In this document: one piece after another, positions 1,398-27,412 of the stretch | Numbering within the stretch: position 1 is the stretch's first letter | Layout of the letters: every line of letters begins with the position of its first letter | DNA from: a virus | Lineage: Duplodnaviria > Heunggongvirae > Uroviricota > Caudoviricetes | Strand: one strand, 5' to 3' | DNA length: 28,423 nt | Virus record (IMG/VR): IMGVR_UViG_2537562173_000011 | Span: 1-28,423 of that record | The notes under the pieces: generated by a model | The model's input: only the letters and a program-made list of their open reading frames with translations | Databases searched by the model: none | Told to the model about the DNA's origin: nothing | Translations under genes and position numbers: made by a program

Positions 1398-2153
1398 TTA
1401 TTGCGTGAGCTTCGCATGATAGCTGGAGCATCTCTTGTCATCACTAATTAGCTCCGCTTTATCCGTTCTTGCCCATATTATATTTCTTTTTATTATTTTT
1501 GCTGGATTACCGGCTGCTGCACACATAGATGGCACATCTTTAGTTACAATACTCCCATACCCAATGACAGATCCGCTTCCAACAGATACTCCTTTCATTA
1601 TAGAGACATTTCTCCCTACCCATACGTAACTAGATATAATGATATCTTTTGCCCAATTAATCCTTTTTTTGCTATGAATATCAAATATAGGATGCCCATC
1701 TGATGCACGCAAAATAACATCTCTTGCTATCATGCAGTCATGGCCAATTGTAACATTGCACTTATCAGTGACGACTTCAAAACCTGCACCTATTGTCGTT
1801 CTTCTACCGATAATAACTTTTGAACCTTTTGTTGCGACAATATCACCTTTAATCTTACTGTTTTTATGTATTCTTACGTAATTATTATCACCCCTAAATA
1901 TTACGGTAAGCCATCGACACTCAACATCATCTTCTATAATAAGTTTGTTATTGTTTCCATTGAACTGAACTTTATTCTCTTTGCTATTTACAAGATCTCC
2001 ACATACAAAAACATTACCTGACCCATTATCATCAACGGAAAACGAGTCTTGAGTCTTGAGTCTTGAGACTTGAGTCTTGAGGCTTGAGTCTTGAGTCTTG
2101 AGTCTTGAGACTTGAGTCTTGAGGCTTGAGTCTTGAGTCTTGAGTCTTAACAT
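1398..2153 (-). CDS. neuO: Polysialic acid (K1 capsule) O-acetyltransferase, hexapeptide-repeat family, phase-variable
   Basis: 251-aa ORF starting at ATG 2153. N-terminus is built from RLKTQDS-type heptads encoded by AAGACTC repeats; the rest has left-handed beta-helix acetyltransferase character (IGAGFEVV, VGSGSVIGYGSIV). AT-rich, sits between int and tailspike as in CUS-3. Confidence 0.85.
   Translation of the reverse strand: MLRLKTQDSSLKTQVSRLKTQDSSLKTQVSRLKTQDSFSVDDNGSGNVFVCGDLVNSKENKVQFNGNNNKLIIEDDVECRWLTVIFRGDNNYVRIHKNSKIKGDIVATKGSKVIIGRRTTIGAGFEVVTDKCNVTIGHDCMIARDVILRASDGHPIFDIHSKKRINWAKDIIISSYVWVGRNVSIMKGVSVGSGSVIGYGSIVTKDVPSMCAAAGNPAKIIKRNIIWARTDKAELISDDKRCSSYHAKLTQ
2044..2148 (-). 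repeat. Heptanucleotide VNTR, 15 tandem units (coding strand 5'-AAGACTC-3') at the 5' end of neuO
   Basis: Counted directly: 15 contiguous 7-bp units, 11 perfect AAGACTC plus 2 AAGCCTC and 2 AAGTCTC, arranged as a 42-bp super-unit. 15 is a multiple of 3, so the ORF reads through in frame (ON state). Confidence 0.95.
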
Positions 2154-7589: not shown

Positions 7590-8004
7590 AGTCAAACATA
7601 GTGTTTCTAAAGTCTCTCGCATACCCTGCTAACACTCTCATTCTATTATGATTGTTAGCAGACATGTGAGCTACAGGATGAAAAAGAGCAATCAATGAAT
7701 GCCTGTTCTCATCAAAAAGATTTTGTGCATAAACGAGAGCGGTATTGGATGTTTTATGCCACTGCAACTTTTGCGGTGTGCTGATATCTGTGCCATTTTT
7801 TATTGGCTCAAATTTATTTTCACCAATTGCTAAATGAAGGTGCATAAGGCCTGCATCTTCAATATCAGGAGGTCGATGATAAGAGGTGTCTCTGCCAAAA
7901 TAGCTGGGCAACGTTCCCGTAGACTTGTAGATGATTTTATCATCTACAAGTGTTTGTTTTAAATCAGGAAACTCAACAAAAACCGGGGAGAAAAAAATAG
8001 TCAA
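7588..8004 (-). CDS. Hypothetical protein (138 aa if the TTG start is used), second gene of a two-gene hotspot operon
   Basis: Open frame with AGGA 5 nt upstream of a TTG at 8004; first in-frame ATG would give about 85 aa. No family recognised. AT-rich. Confidence 0.4.
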   Translation of the reverse strand: MTIFFSPVFVEFPDLKQTLVDDKIIYKSTGTLPSYFGRDTSYHRPPDIEDAGLMHLHLAIGENKFEPIKNGTDISTPQKLQWHKTSNTALVYAQNLFDENRHSLIALFHPVAHMSANNHNRMRVLAGYARDFRNTMFD

Positions 8005-18438: not shown

Positions 18439-20306
18439 TTACTGCTGTGGTTGTTGCTGAGTTGATTTTTGCAGGATGCTGCTGATGTCCATGCGCTGCG
18501 CATGGCCCTGTGCCTGACTTTTCAGGACAAGCTCTGCATCAGCACGGGCATTGTCTCCTTGCTGTTGCTGGAACTGTCCGAGCAGTTTCAGAGCCTCGCG
18601 GATATCAGATTTCTGCTGGCTATCGGCAGATGCGAGGATTTTCACAACATTTGCCGCTGCAACCTGAGCATCAGTCTGTGCCTGGAATGCTTTAACCTGA
18701 ATGGCTGCCTGCTCGTTCTGCGCTTTCTGCAATTCAGCCTGACCAGCAAGAAGCTGACCTTGCGCAGCAACCATAGCCGGATCTGGCTGACTGGCCTGTT
18801 GTTGTTTCGCCTGCTCAACCATCTGCTGTTCTTCTGGCGTTCTCGGCTTGATAACTCCAGACAGAAGCAACTGATTGCGGTTGTATTCTTTAAGGTCGTC
18901 CATCCCTTCGCCGTCCATATTGTCGAGGATCATCGACGATACAAGGTCGTGTTTCGGCGTTCCGGGCGGGATAAGTGCCAGCATGGAAAGTAACGACTTA
19001 ACCGTTGCGTCACGGCGAGTAGCGAACGCCTGACCGACATCGACAGTCACAGCCCGGCAAGAGCTGGAGGCATTTGTGTCGGAGGCGTATAACTGCTGAC
19101 CTGAGCCTGCGCAGTAATATCTCCGTTTTTGTTTTTCAGACTGACCATCGGCAGGAACGCCGGGCGCTTTTTGTTGCGCTCCGCCCAATGAGTGGCGAGA
19201 GGACCAGGAATCATGTCAACATCAACTACAGGAATGCCATCACCGCCAGCCTGAGTAGCGTTATCTGCAATCATGGAAACCATCAGGTTCTCAAGACGCT
19301 GTGCATCCATCGCTTTTGCTGCGTGGCCTTCGATTCGTTCCTGATTATCAACAAATGAGCGACGTCCATATACCGGGATGAGAGGAATATGTTCGCCCGG
19401 AATACGCTTCGGTTCTTCCAGCCATTCAGCGCCAGACAGAAGGCCGCAATAAACGCGGCGTTTCTTCACCGTTCGCTCGCCAATCAGTTCGAATGCACCA
19501 TCGGTCAGCTCGTCGACAATATCTTTGATTTGCTCTTCATCATAGATTGCCGTTTCTCCGCTAACAGGGTTGCGCCATGCCGTGAGCTTCACCTTCTCTA
19601 TGCGAACTTCGTAGTAGCGCCCAACATAGATGGCATCTGGCGTTGACCAGTCATATTGAGTGCCAGTCTCATCACGAGAAAGGCCTGCCGCGATGGAATC
19701 AGGGTATTCAGCCTCGAACGCTTTAGGCGTCATGGAGAACATTTCCATAGCCCACATAGCATCAGAACGGTCATATTGCTTGCTGTCCTGATCGAAGAAG
19801 ACGCATGTCGCTGGGTCGTAAACAGGAAGAAGGCTGATGCGTCGCTGCTCGTTACTTGGGTCCATTTCATCTTCGTAATCGGCACACATGCGGAAACAAC
19901 CGAATCCGCCCGTTACAGCATCATCAAATGCGTTATCACACGCTTCGCCACCTGATGTTTCCTGATAGTCAGCGCGGAATTTGCCGTTCATCTTTTTGGC
20001 TAACGCTTCCGATGCCTTGTCATCCTTCGGCCTGAATTTAACGCTGATGCGATTCTGTCGATACTCGCCAATGATGCGATCACATTCACGGGCAATCTTA
20101 TTCAGTTCAAAGCGCGGGTAATGCTCAAACCTGCCTTCATCAAATGAGTAACCAGCGTTTGTGCTGCCTTCCCACTGTGCGCCGGATACCCGGACGAAAC
20201 GTTGAGCCTCAATAATCTGCTCACGCATATCCTGCGTTGCTGACCAGGCATTATCAAAGTTGCACAGCACCTTGCGATGCCAGTCAGTCATCTTTTTTTC
20301 TGCCAT
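18439..20306 (-). pseudogene. Portal protein (P22 gp1 family), apparently split across two overlapping reading frames
   Basis: ORF 19047..20306 carries portal N-terminal motifs (RTVKKRRVY, GEHIPLIPVYG); ORF 18439..19188 carries the C-terminal barrel region (KPRTPEEQQ...DPAMVAAQGQLLAGQAELQKAQN). The two are in different frames and overlap by 142 bp. Confidence 0.65.
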
Positions 20307-20307
20307 A

Positions 20308-21723
20308 TCAACCTACACCACAAGGAATTGAGTAACTGGAATAGTCGGGTTGCGCAGCCGACTCCGGGCAATGCATACACATCATCAGCGCATCAGCCAG
20401 GTTAGGAGATGGGATACCGAGCTTCTGCTTCATTTCGACCTTAGTCATAAGCTCCAGTTTCCCGTTATTATTGAATTTGCGCTGAATCTGCGTCAGTTCT
20501 GCAAACAGTTTCTCCAGCATCTTCTCGCCTATCGCTTCTTTGTCGAAGCTCAGCATGTCGTCGGGGTCTGCATACTCACCGTGGACAACCGCCCGATATG
20601 TCAGATACAGCCTGTCAGCCAGCGCGTAATAGAATTGCGCTCGCTTATTGCGGAATACATCGCCAATAGTGCGAACGTTGTCACCCTGTACGACTTCATC
20701 AGCCCATGCTCCGGCCTGATACGGAGCATCTTCATCGAATGGCGATTCGCTGCCCTTGAACATCGTGGCGGTAATTTTCTTGCCGGAGAATGCTTCCGTT
20801 GTCTGTCTGCGTAGCCCTGCACCGACACCATCGCCATCCCACAGGTAATGGTCAGCGCCGTCTTCAATCGCCAGCGAAGTAGCCCAGTCAGCACCCTCGT
20901 TGATGTCCATCAGCAGACCTTCGGCAATGCGCTTAACTACCGAACCGTGACGCGATGCATAACCTTTAGCATCTGGCCCTGTATCTGATGGGTCATGCGC
21001 AGAGACAACAGCGCCTTTCGCTTTCCATCCGAGTTTCTTGTGCGCATCGGTTGCGGCTTCAAGCCATTCACGTTTGATGATTGCCATATCACTTGCGCTT
21101 ACTGGCTCACCAAGCCAGATGTGACGATACAGTGTCGGGTTTCTGCGTTTACACTCTTCCATCTCCAGACGGAGAACTTCAGGAAAGTGCGGGTTGTCGG
21201 TGTAGTTCACCGTCAGCAGGCAAATATCATCGGGAGGATTTACGACGAATCGCTGATAGGTATCGTCGAGGATGTTCTTCGGGTTAAAGCTCACCCATAT
21301 TTCAGAGAACGGCTTACGGATGGGTGGGGTCAGGATATCCCATGATTCCTTCGTTACCGCTTCCGCTTCTTCCACCCAGCAGATATCAATGCCTTCGAGC
21401 GATTTAATCTTCGTCGGGTTGTTTTTGATGCCGTAGAACATGAATTCAGCATTCGTTCCGAGATGACGAATCATTGAACGCTGAATTTCAAACTCAGCCG
21501 AATACCCTTCCCGCTCGATGGTGTCTTCAAGCAACCGGATTACCGAATCGCTGATACTGTTTTGCAGTTCACGAGCACAGAGGATGCGCACAGGCTGCCG
21601 ACGCGCCGCTTCAACAAGCAGCCTCGCAATTGCCCATGACTTACCGCTACCTCGACCGCCTTTGGCGACTTTGTAGCGATGCGCCTCAATGAACGGTTCA
21701 AAGATAGGATTAATCGAGGTCAT
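20308..21723 (-). CDS. Terminase large subunit
   Basis: 471 aa; Walker A KGGRGSGKS near the N-terminus; C-terminal nuclease-like domain; stop abuts the portal start. Confidence 0.9.
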   Translation of the reverse strand: MTSINPIFEPFIEAHRYKVAKGGRGSGKSWAIARLLVEAARRQPVRILCARELQNSISDSVIRLLEDTIEREGYSAEFEIQRSMIRHLGTNAEFMFYGIKNNPTKIKSLEGIDICWVEEAEAVTKESWDILTPPIRKPFSEIWVSFNPKNILDDTYQRFVVNPPDDICLLTVNYTDNPHFPEVLRLEMEECKRRNPTLYRHIWLGEPVSASDMAIIKREWLEAATDAHKKLGWKAKGAVVSAHDPSDTGPDAKGYASRHGSVVKRIAEGLLMDINEGADWATSLAIEDGADHYLWDGDGVGAGLRRQTTEAFSGKKITATMFKGSESPFDEDAPYQAGAWADEVVQGDNVRTIGDVFRNKRAQFYYALADRLYLTYRAVVHGEYADPDDMLSFDKEAIGEKMLEKLFAELTQIQRKFNNNGKLELMTKVEMKQKLGIPSPNLADALMMCMHCPESAAQPDYSSYSIPCGVG

Positions 21724-22508: not shown

Positions 22509-22889
22509 CTACTGTTCGCTTAGCTTCTGCTTCAGCAAGTAACCTTCGAGCATCCAGATTTTGTTTACAGCATTCTGCCGGGCAATCTTCCGACCAATTT
22601 CTGCATCAAAGTTTTCCGGGCTTGCACAGGCACTCTCTCCGGTGACGGTGAAGCCATTCTTCAGCACCAGTACGCAGAAAGTGAGCAACTTCAATGGTGA
22701 TAAATCACGATCGCCTTCTTCTGGTTTTTCCCTGCCACAATATTCGTTGCTGGAAATGGCACCATTTCGTCCATCATAAGCAGTAAAGTAATGCTCGCTT
22801 TTAATCACGTCTTCGATGTGCTGCGGGGTGATTCGCGGTGCCGTTTTGCCTTTCTCAACGATTTCTTTTTCGATTTGCTGGTCGTTCAT
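22509..22889 (-). CDS. Hypothetical phage protein (126 aa)
   Basis: Clean ATG start, consistent codon usage; between rha and the packaging genes. No function recognised. Confidence 0.45.
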   Translation of the reverse strand: MNDQQIEKEIVEKGKTAPRITPQHIEDVIKSEHYFTAYDGRNGAISSNEYCGREKPEEGDRDLSPLKLLTFCVLVLKNGFTVTGESACASPENFDAEIGRKIARQNAVNKIWMLEGYLLKQKLSEQ

Positions 22890-23047
22890 AATTATGACCC
22901 TGTAGAGTGGTTGCTTGATTAGGATGTCTTTCCATCAGTCCGCCACCACAAAGAATCTTTTTTGCCATAAGGCAGGAGGTTCATCTTTCAGTGGCTGCCA
23001 GTGTTATTTCCCCACTTTCTGGCTTGGGTTGTTTCGCTGTACTGCCG

Positions 23048-24846: not shown

Positions 24847-25082
24847 CTTCTACTCCGGCTTTTTTAGCAGCGAAGCGTTTGATAAGCGAACCAATCGAGT
24901 CAGTACCGATGTAGCCGATGAACACGCTCGTTATATAAGCGAGATTGCTACTTAGTCCGGCGAAGTCGAGAAGGTCACGAATGAACCAGGCGATAATGGC
25001 GCACATCGTTGCGTCGATTACTGTTTTTGTAAACGCACCGCCATTATATCTGCCGCGAAGGTACGCCATTGCAAACGCAAGG
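24830..25082 (-). pseudogene. S: Holin S (lambda type), lacking its native N-terminus and start codons
   Basis: From ...[45 protein letters not shown]... to the C-terminus the translation matches lambda S, but the first ~24 codons ([24 protein letters not shown]) are replaced by the foldback/homopolymer junction. Confidence 0.8.
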
Positions 25083-25139
25083 CATCGGGGCAATCCTTGC
25101 GTTTGCAATGGCGTACCTTCGCGGCAGATATAATGGCGG
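25038..25139. repeat. Perfect 45-bp inverted repeat (foldback) with 12-bp spacer
   Basis: Left arm 25038-25082 is the exact reverse complement of right arm 25095-25139; both are holin S codons ~22-40, once in each orientation. The plus-strand copy plus spacer reads [21 protein letters not shown]. Confidence 0.95.
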
Positions 25140-25167
25140 GGGGGGTGTAAAAAAAAAAAAAAAAAAA
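25138..25167. repeat. Homopolymer tract G8-TGT-A19
   Basis: Read directly: gggggggg tgt aaaaaaaaaaaaaaaaaaa, between the foldback repeat and the argE-derived sequence. Confidence 0.95.
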
Positions 25168-25170
25168 TCC

Positions 25171-26022
25171 CCGCCATTTATCGAGATTTACCGTGCTCTG
25201 ATTGCCACACCTTCAATAAGCGCCACGGAAGAGGCACTCGATCAAAGCAATGCAGATTTAATCACTCTGCTGGCGGACTGGTTTAAGGATTTAGGCTTCA
25301 ATGTGGAAGTACAGCCTGTGCCAGGAACTCGCAACAAATTTAATATGCTGGCCAGTTGCGGACAGGGGGCTGGCGGTTTGTTGCTGGCGGGGCATACCGA
25401 TACGGTGCCATTTGATGACGGACGCTGGACGCGCGATCCATTTACGTTGACGGAGCATGACGGCAAGCTTTACGGCTTAGGCACCGCCGACATGAAAGGC
25501 TTTTTTGCGTTTATCCTTGATGCGCTACGCGATGTCGACGTCACGAAGCTTGCAAAACCGCTCTACATTCTGGCGACTGCCGATGAAGAAACCAGTATGG
25601 CCGGAGCGCGTTATTTTGCCGAAACTACCGCCCTGCGCCCGGATTGCGCCATCATTGGCGAGCCAACGTCGCTGCAACCGGTACGCGCGCATAAAGGTCA
25701 TATCTCTAACGCCATCCGTATTCAGGGCCAGTCGGGCCACTCCAGCGATCCAGCACGCGGAGTTAACGCTATCGAACTGATGCACGACGCCATCGGGCAT
25801 ATTTTGCAATTGCGCGATAACCTGAAAGAACGTTATCACTACGACGCGTTTACCGTGCCATACCCTACGCTCAACCTCGGGCATATCCACGGCGGCGATG
25901 CATCTAACCGTATTTGCGCTTGTTGTGAGTTGCATATGGATATTCGTCCGCTGCCAGGCATGACACTCAATGAACTTAACGGTTTGCTCAACGATGCATT
26001 GGCTCCAGTGAGCGAACGCTGG
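25171..26022 (+). pseudogene. argE: Internal fragment of acetylornithine deacetylase gene argE (about codons 6-289), no start codon, truncated 3' end
   Basis: Translation [62 protein letters not shown]...SERW matches E. coli ArgE as recalled; homology is lost after SERW, followed by VGL-stop. Confidence 0.85.
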
Positions 26023-26059
26023 GTGGGCTTGTGATGGTTGCTGAATGCAAAAGCAGCAG

Positions 26060-26100
26060 CATATGTGAATATTATGGCTAAATGGCTAATTGCATGTCAA
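26060..26100 (-). promoter_or_regulatory. Candidate late promoter pR' (sigma70-like TTGACA-N18-CATAAT) overlapping the 3' end of Q
   Basis: Minus-strand TTGACAtgcaattagccatttagcCATAAT; directed toward the lysis genes, at the position where lambdoid phages place pR'. Confidence 0.35.
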
Positions 26101-27140: not shown

Positions 27141-27412
27141 TGGACAAACACCCTCCCATTGTTAACCAATTTTTTAAGGGTAAGCACAATGGCCCGATCC
27201 ATTTCAGCCCTTCGCTCTTCCCTGCTCATATCTCTCCCATTATCAATTCTTGAATGACAATCAACACATAGCGCAGCAGTAAGGCAATCATCTACTTTAA
27301 TCCCAACCCCCTTCCCTTCATTTCTGTGAGCGGCCTGAACTCCGTATCTTCCGCAAAGAACGCAAAATTCAATATCCCTGACTGCCTGAAGCCATTTTTT
27401 GCTTCTAAACAT
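27137..27412 (-). CDS. Cys-rich nin-region protein (YbcO/DUF1364-like)
   Basis: 91 aa from ATG 27412; cysteine pairs CVLCG ... CVDCH suggest a zinc-binding nuclease-like fold; sits upstream of rusA as in DLP12-type nin regions. Confidence 0.5.
   Translation of the reverse strand: MFRSKKWLQAVRDIEFCVLCGRYGVQAAHRNEGKGVGIKVDDCLTAALCVDCHSRIDNGRDMSREERRAEMDRAIVLTLKKLVNNGRVFVQ

Follow-up and report, generated by a model that had tools for sequence, protein, structure and literature searches.

The prophage and its portal locus

The window, by which we mean the whole 28,423-nucleotide stretch that was analyzed, starts at the ATG of intS and spans int to nin in a CUS-3-like (P22-like, Lederbergvirus) prophage of Escherichia coli. 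It contains the elements of a CUS-3-type K1 prophage: an IntS module, a neuO gene with an AAGACTC VNTR, an endosialidase tailspike and P22-like virion genes. Gene-by-gene tblastn comparison returned 100% identity for intS and 99.9% identity for the 981-aa tailspike, on which End_* Pfam domains were found. As in CUS-3, intS lies beside tRNA-Arg/yfdC and the late genes follow the order terS-terL-portal-scaffold-coat.

Relative to CUS-3, the window is mosaic in gp7, gp20, gp16, a Gp49 moron and the nin region. The ejection-protein genes at 8794-12225 (gp16-, gp20- and gp7-like) have diverged strongly from both CUS-3 and E. coli ZJ3920, with only 48% amino acid identity over the N-terminal half of the gp20-like protein; as their ORFs are intact and of normal length, this divergence is a mosaic replacement and not damage. 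At 22510-22922 the window carries, relative to CUS-3, an extra 413 bp, a natural moron encoding a 126-aa Gp49-family protein between DUF2560 and Rha; the possibility that it marks a faulty join was considered and rejected, since the segment is contiguous in 146 complete E. coli genomes. Finally, at 27141-27896 the hkbD/roi segment of CUS-3 is swapped for a module that includes a 169-aa HNH_3/NUMOD4 endonuclease ORF (27405..27914, minus strand), which is probably ordinary nin-region mosaicism.

Two smaller loci differ from ZJ3920. In the neuO ORF (1398..2153, minus strand), the VNTR at 2044-2148 comprises 15 heptads of AAGACTC (GAGTCTT on the plus strand), a multiple of three that sets the phase to 'on' as written, although the copy number taken from a short-read draft is unreliable; the array is 42 bp longer than in ZJ3920, with four variant units (two GAGACTT and two GAGGCTT) present as a 42-bp duplication. 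In a yafO-like toxin gene on the minus strand, a 4-nt hairpin loop between 12-nt inverted arms is flipped at 7936-7939 (TTTT versus AAAA), and an extra A in an A-run (~7991-7997) frameshifts this YafO-family gene.

The portal gene occupies its expected place between terL (20308..21723) and the scaffold gene (17455..18348), all on the minus strand, and is present as two pieces (Table 1). The ends of the two ORFs given in the initial annotation, 19047 and 19188, agree with the ORF list: the downstream ORF, as listed, runs from 19188 to 18439 (249 aa) and shares 142 bp with the N-terminal ORF over 19047-19188. That overlap arises because the C-terminal frame happens to be open for 46 codons upstream of the junction described below. 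The extension, which begins 'MGGAQQKAPGVPADG...', lies over genuine N-terminal coding sequence and has no portal match of its own; in both Pfam and tblastn, the portal match of the downstream ORF begins only at residue 530.

Table 1. Coordinates of the portal features and of the other altered regions in the window.
Feature	Position	Strand	Description	Basis
N-terminal portal fragment ORF	19047..20306	minus	419 aa; TGA stop at 19049-19047	ORF list, tblastn, Pfam
C-terminal portal remnant	18439..19050	minus	Codons 530-732 plus stop; shifted one base relative to the N-terminal fragment	tblastn, Pfam
Upstream extension of the C-terminal frame	19051..19188	minus	46 codons from TTG; open by chance, not part of the gene	ORF list, three-frame translation
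Deletion junction	19050..19051		331 bp missing, nt 1257-1587 of the 2199-nt portal CDS	Exact two-sided comparison, megablast
Private A>C substitution (Ser537Ala)	19029	plus	21-22 nt from the junction	Comparison with ATCC 11775
T5GT5 run	19126..19136	plus	Unchanged relative to intact genes; not the lesion	Identical string in ATCC 11775
gp10 patchwork	15279-15358	minus (gene, about 14100..15501)	~97 reference bp replaced by ~80 bp	Comparison with references
Holin/late-promoter chimera	25083-26022		Fold-back, G8/A19 and argE; replaces the holin 5' end and the Q-S intergenic/late-promoter region	

The two ORFs were compared with the intact 732-aa portal WP_000818371.1 from E. coli ZJ3920, which is also the portal of CUS-3 (ABQ88400.1) and of the ST95 strains APEC O1, UTI89, S88 and ATCC 11775. 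In tblastn, residues 1-419 of this query match in frame -3 (419/419 identical) and residues 530-732 match in frame -2 with 99.5% identity. Both fragments exceed the gathering cut-off of 26.1 bits for the Pfam family P22_portal (PF16510): the N-terminal fragment scores 348.5 bits over profile positions 2-376 of 594 and the C-terminal remnant 90.9 bits over positions 489-594. The intact relative spans positions 2-594, so that the window copy lacks positions 377-488, and no single ORF covers the whole core profile (wing, stem, stalk and crown). Judged by these alignments, the two ORFs represent collinear stretches of a single P22-family portal gene from which the middle is missing; at the DNA level, with 99.9-100% identity to the CUS-3 portal either side of the junction, this gene is essentially the CUS-3 allele carried by ST95 strains. 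The split over two frames claimed in the initial annotation is therefore borne out, as is its suspicion that part of the central domain had been lost, with amino acids 419/420-529 of 732 absent; the alignment to CUS-3/Sf6/P22-type portals that it proposed places the deletion and gave no sign of non-collinearity.

A flush 331-bp deletion breaks the reading frame

Base-by-base comparison with CUS-3 and ATCC 11775 places the break between 19050 and 19051, with a flush join. In agreement, a megablast search of phages and 5,426 complete E. coli genomes with positions 18300-20450 gave matches of 98-100% identity that always fell into two pieces and spanned 2,482 bp for the 2,151-bp query; the block ends pair 19050 with 25407 and 19051 with 25739 of an intact relative. 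As 331 is 3 × 110 + 1, the reading frame shifts. Codons 1-418 are unchanged from the intact gene; the join recreates codon 419 as CTG in place of CTA, which still encodes Leu, and the TGA stop comes directly after it. When the 331 bp were returned in silico, a 732-aa ORF was restored, with S537A as its sole difference from the reference. Compared with the CUS-3 portal gene, the window copy is thus distinguished by the missing block, the S537A substitution and the broken frame.

The junction reads GGGCT/GTGACTG where the intact type reads GGGCTAT..., and the contexts of the two breakpoints are ...CAGTCAC/TTCATAG... and ...CTGCAAT/AGCCCGG... (slashes mark the breaks), with 0 nt of microhomology and no filler. 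A search of the intact gene for direct and inverted repeats at the breakpoints revealed neither kind, and no direct repeat has a spacing of ~331 nt. Spontaneous deletions in E. coli usually use short direct repeats, and a repeat-mediated (slipped-mispairing) deletion was rejected here because the breakpoints carry none.

The sequence around the junction is otherwise nearly free of change. From 19051 to 21219 the window is base-for-base identical to the intact gene region of E. coli ATCC 11775, and over the longer interval 18044-21219 the A>C substitution at 19029 is the only difference from the ATCC 11775 prophage apart from the deletion itself. This substitution is absent from all of the best E. 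coli matches to a 120-nt query across the junction (99.2% identity); the chance that a random position falls as close to the junction as it does is ~1%.

The same comparisons dispose of a simpler account, in which a homopolymer indel in the T5GT5 run, arising by sequencing error or slippage, causes the frame change. The initial annotation had pointed to this run, which is indeed present, within the 142 bp that the two ORFs share, but it is not the site at which the frame changes. The run, like the sequence on either side of it, matches the intact gene; the N-terminal frame reads reference residues 1-419 unchanged through it; and no 1-2 nt difference in a mononucleotide run was found, the sole indel being the 331-bp block. 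That block alone accounts for the frame change, as its reinsertion demonstrates, and for the shortening as well. The alignments thus refute the homopolymer explanation, to which we attach virtually no likelihood.

What the portal would lose

End-to-end alignments were obtained between the intact relative and both the portal gp3 of Shigella phage Sf6 (PDB 7SFS, E 1e-248) and the portal gp1 of Salmonella phage P22 (PDB 3LJ5/5GAI, E ~1e-119 to 6e-119); these portals, the latter also represented by PDB 5JJ3, belong to the same Pfam family, PF16510. Residues 419-529 correspond in the alignment to ~416-527 of Sf6 and ~404-515 of P22, the segment that is absent from the window copy; everything downstream of it is out of frame. 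Work on P22 (PMC5290284) divides the portal into wing, stem, stalk, crown and barrel, with the stalk at residues 344-398, the 'hammer' loop of the wing at 456-505, the crown at 525-600 and the barrel at 600-725. On this plan, the deletion would remove the post-stalk segment, including the hammer loop, and end just before the crown, and the frameshift would additionally remove the crown and barrel. The C-terminal remnant is out of frame, so ribosomes that initiate at the portal start codon would not read it. The sequence as it stands would yield a 419-aa N-terminal stump alone and, considering the established role of the portal, no portal ring.

It could instead be proposed that the portal is functional in two pieces, through recoding or re-initiation, or that the 331 bp are an insertion in the relatives and the window holds the 'empty' form. 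The TGA stop shares bases with a GTG, which was codon Val530 in the intact gene, in the string GTGA, a classic geometry for translational coupling. Against this proposal, the portal is a single continuous ORF in all relatives from CUS-3 to Sf6 and P22, and every relative examined (drawn from 416 E. coli and 11 phage records covering most of the region) has the 331 bp in place, with no indication of a programmed frameshift. Furthermore, the missing residues belong to the conserved core, aligning with profile positions 377-488 and with the known structures of the Sf6 and P22 portals, no Shine-Dalgarno sequence precedes the GTG, and the split arrangement occurs in no other sequence among the E. 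coli genomes searched. A two-piece portal made by re-initiation at GTGA was accordingly rejected on the grounds of conservation and of the missing ribosome-binding site, and we regard a functional split, or an ancestral 'empty' form, as extremely improbable.

The junction is confined to one draft genome

The 120-nt junction query, when run against 5,426 complete E. coli genomes and 50,697 phage records, always split into two matches 331 bp apart, and a 40-nt junction query had no match in the 5,426 complete E. coli genomes. Exact 32- and 50-mers over the junction were likewise absent from IMG/VR, the GTDB species representatives and the JGI metagenomes.

An exact-protein look-up with the 419-aa product returned two Logan contigs (SRR26926509_103684 and ERR10986533_7454), which initially seemed to back the deletion independently. 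Both come from unrelated run assemblies, and both end 2-3 nt from the portal breakpoint yet continue there with the intact sequence GGGCTAT.... They do not carry the deletion, as both are of the intact type and merely end at this point. We judge them to be a selection effect of looking up an exact protein; a recurrent graph branch at the portal breakpoint may exist in Logan assemblies.

The window itself is 100% identical, over the 18,116 bp compared and including the portal junction, to contig AEYT01000031.1 (GCA_000233675.2; 55,760 bp). The TerL allele of the window has an exact-protein match in this single public contig, with no Logan assembly of the i1 run among the matches, and the NeuO look-up matched the same contig. 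AEYT00000000 is the genome of E. coli clone A strain i1, an ST95 strain close to APEC O1, and is an unfinished draft from 2011, sequenced with Illumina GAIIx paired-end reads, assembled into 56 scaffolds including 79 contigs and ordered on APEC O1 (PMC3203180). For i1, no assembler and no PCR checks are reported, and, unlike for the other genomes in the same paper, no finishing is mentioned (PMC3203180).

Other private joins in the same contig

Two further late-gene regions of the window depart abruptly from its relatives. In the gp10 region, the window matches the references up to 15278 and again from ~15359. Of the filler between these points, 52 nt derive from the core gene zwf (a mismatch comes after 47 exact nt) and 27 nt duplicate positions 17938-17964 in the scaffold gene exactly, with a few stray bases besides; the zwf piece had no 100% match in any E. 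coli genome. As a result, gp10 is split into ORFs of 74 aa and 376 aa in two frames. The patchwork looks like a wrong gap-fill or a set of chimeric contig tips, and the similar lengths of the filler and of the DNA it replaces fit a wrong gap-fill.

The second region lies at the holin and late promoter. Here, the 57 nt at 25083-25139 reverse-complement exactly the bases just before them, folding back around a 12-nt loop that is flanked by a natural CAAGG/CCTTG inverted repeat. The fold-back is followed by G8 and A19 runs that resemble the argE leader copied with many errors, and then, at 25159-26022, by 864 bp of argE itself (nt about 4-867, 99.7% identity). Natural sequence from downstream of Q restarts at 26023, inside one arm of a terminator hairpin. 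The argE join creates a spurious 321-aa 'Peptidase_M20' ORF (25069..26034), and the holin/argE joins were found in no other genome. A SNP at 26086 was considered as a second example of a SNP next to a join and was rejected, being natural sequence common to 41 genomes. The altered hairpin loop and A-run of the yafO-like gene add a third private departure in this prophage.

The contig also contains 6 kb of host flank, which is identical to ZJ3920, although this is too little sequence to decide the matter.

Origin of the deletion

The initial annotation had left the choice between a homopolymer error and true inactivation. With the homopolymer refuted, the choice between error and inactivation still stands but is recast, as one between a misassembly or collapsed gap and a real deletion, and the source record, together with its faulty joins, tilts the balance toward error. 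We therefore consider, with moderate confidence, that the most likely origin of the 331-bp loss is a local assembly error in the unfinished short-read draft. The segment would then represent a collapsed or wrongly closed gap, or the point at which two contig ends were abutted.

Several observations favor an assembly error. The junction is unique to this record in all of the collections searched; the same prophage, on the same contig, carries further private chimeric joins; the breakpoints show no microhomology or direct repeat; and on an otherwise pristine background the single SNP close to the junction fits an erroneous contig tip. As a group, the joins appear typical of the faulty gap filling, chimeric tips and contigs abutted without Ns that occur in an early short-read draft, here one with an undocumented assembler. 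They share with early short-read misassemblies the private joins, the read-sized unrelated fillers, the low-complexity runs, the fold-back at a small natural inverted repeat and the error near a join. Unlike such misassemblies, the portal join has no filler, and the gap history of the record, like its assembler, is undocumented. Two further points argue against an assembly error: close ST95 relatives have one copy of the portal gene, which leaves no obvious repeat at which an assembler would fail, and the host flank of the same contig is error-free.

Second in likelihood, and put forward tentatively, is that the i1 prophage has undergone a true and very recent deletion of 331 bp by homology-independent joining. 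With no portal ring there would be no DNA packaging, and the prophage would be defective while still supplying neuO and the lysogenic-conversion genes. The flush join between flanks identical to intact relatives has the look of a correctly assembled true deletion and, having no filler, is tidier than the faulty joins elsewhere in the prophage. For a graph assembler working on short reads to make such a junction, reads across it are normally required, and the adjacent SNP could be associated with repair; the single copy of the portal gene in close relatives points the same way. Moreover, late genes of prophages are often inactivated, and frameshifted injection or coat genes occur in related prophages of finished genomes. 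If real, the deletion would follow the same pattern as in defective lambdoid and P22-like prophages, with a morphogenesis gene hit and the conversion genes (neuO, the tailspike region and immunity) intact.

What weighs against a real deletion, besides the uniqueness of its junction and the lack of microhomology or direct repeats, is its company: in the neighboring late genes of the draft, two or more joins are chimeric and bring in pieces of core genes and low-complexity junk, and three independent knock-outs of the late operon on a nearly mutation-free background would be unlikely biology. Classical prophage decay comprises several point mutations, IS insertions and repeat-mediated deletions, whereas here the background is nearly free of mutations and the joins are flush or chimeric.

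A further account takes all of the private joins as real, the late operon of i1 having suffered repeated double-strand breaks that were healed by filler-capturing end joining. The 52 nt of zwf, the 27 nt of the scaffold gene, the 864 bp of argE and the hairpin fold-back would then be templated fillers, and one of the healing events would have left the flush 331-bp loss in the portal gene. We consider this account improbable; if true, it would be a natural case, in E. coli, of a prophage silenced through filler-DNA end joining.

Implications

Whether artefact or real deletion, the split portal is nothing new in kind. Contig AEYT01000031.1 serves as a caution, with several faulty joins inside one prophage, and calls of pseudogenes, 'defective prophage' or chimeric ORFs from it, such as the 321-aa argE-derived ORF and the split gp10, are untrustworthy without the reads. 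A real deletion would mean that a single ST95 isolate has a CUS-3-like prophage which makes no particles and yet keeps neuO, a known kind of prophage domestication.
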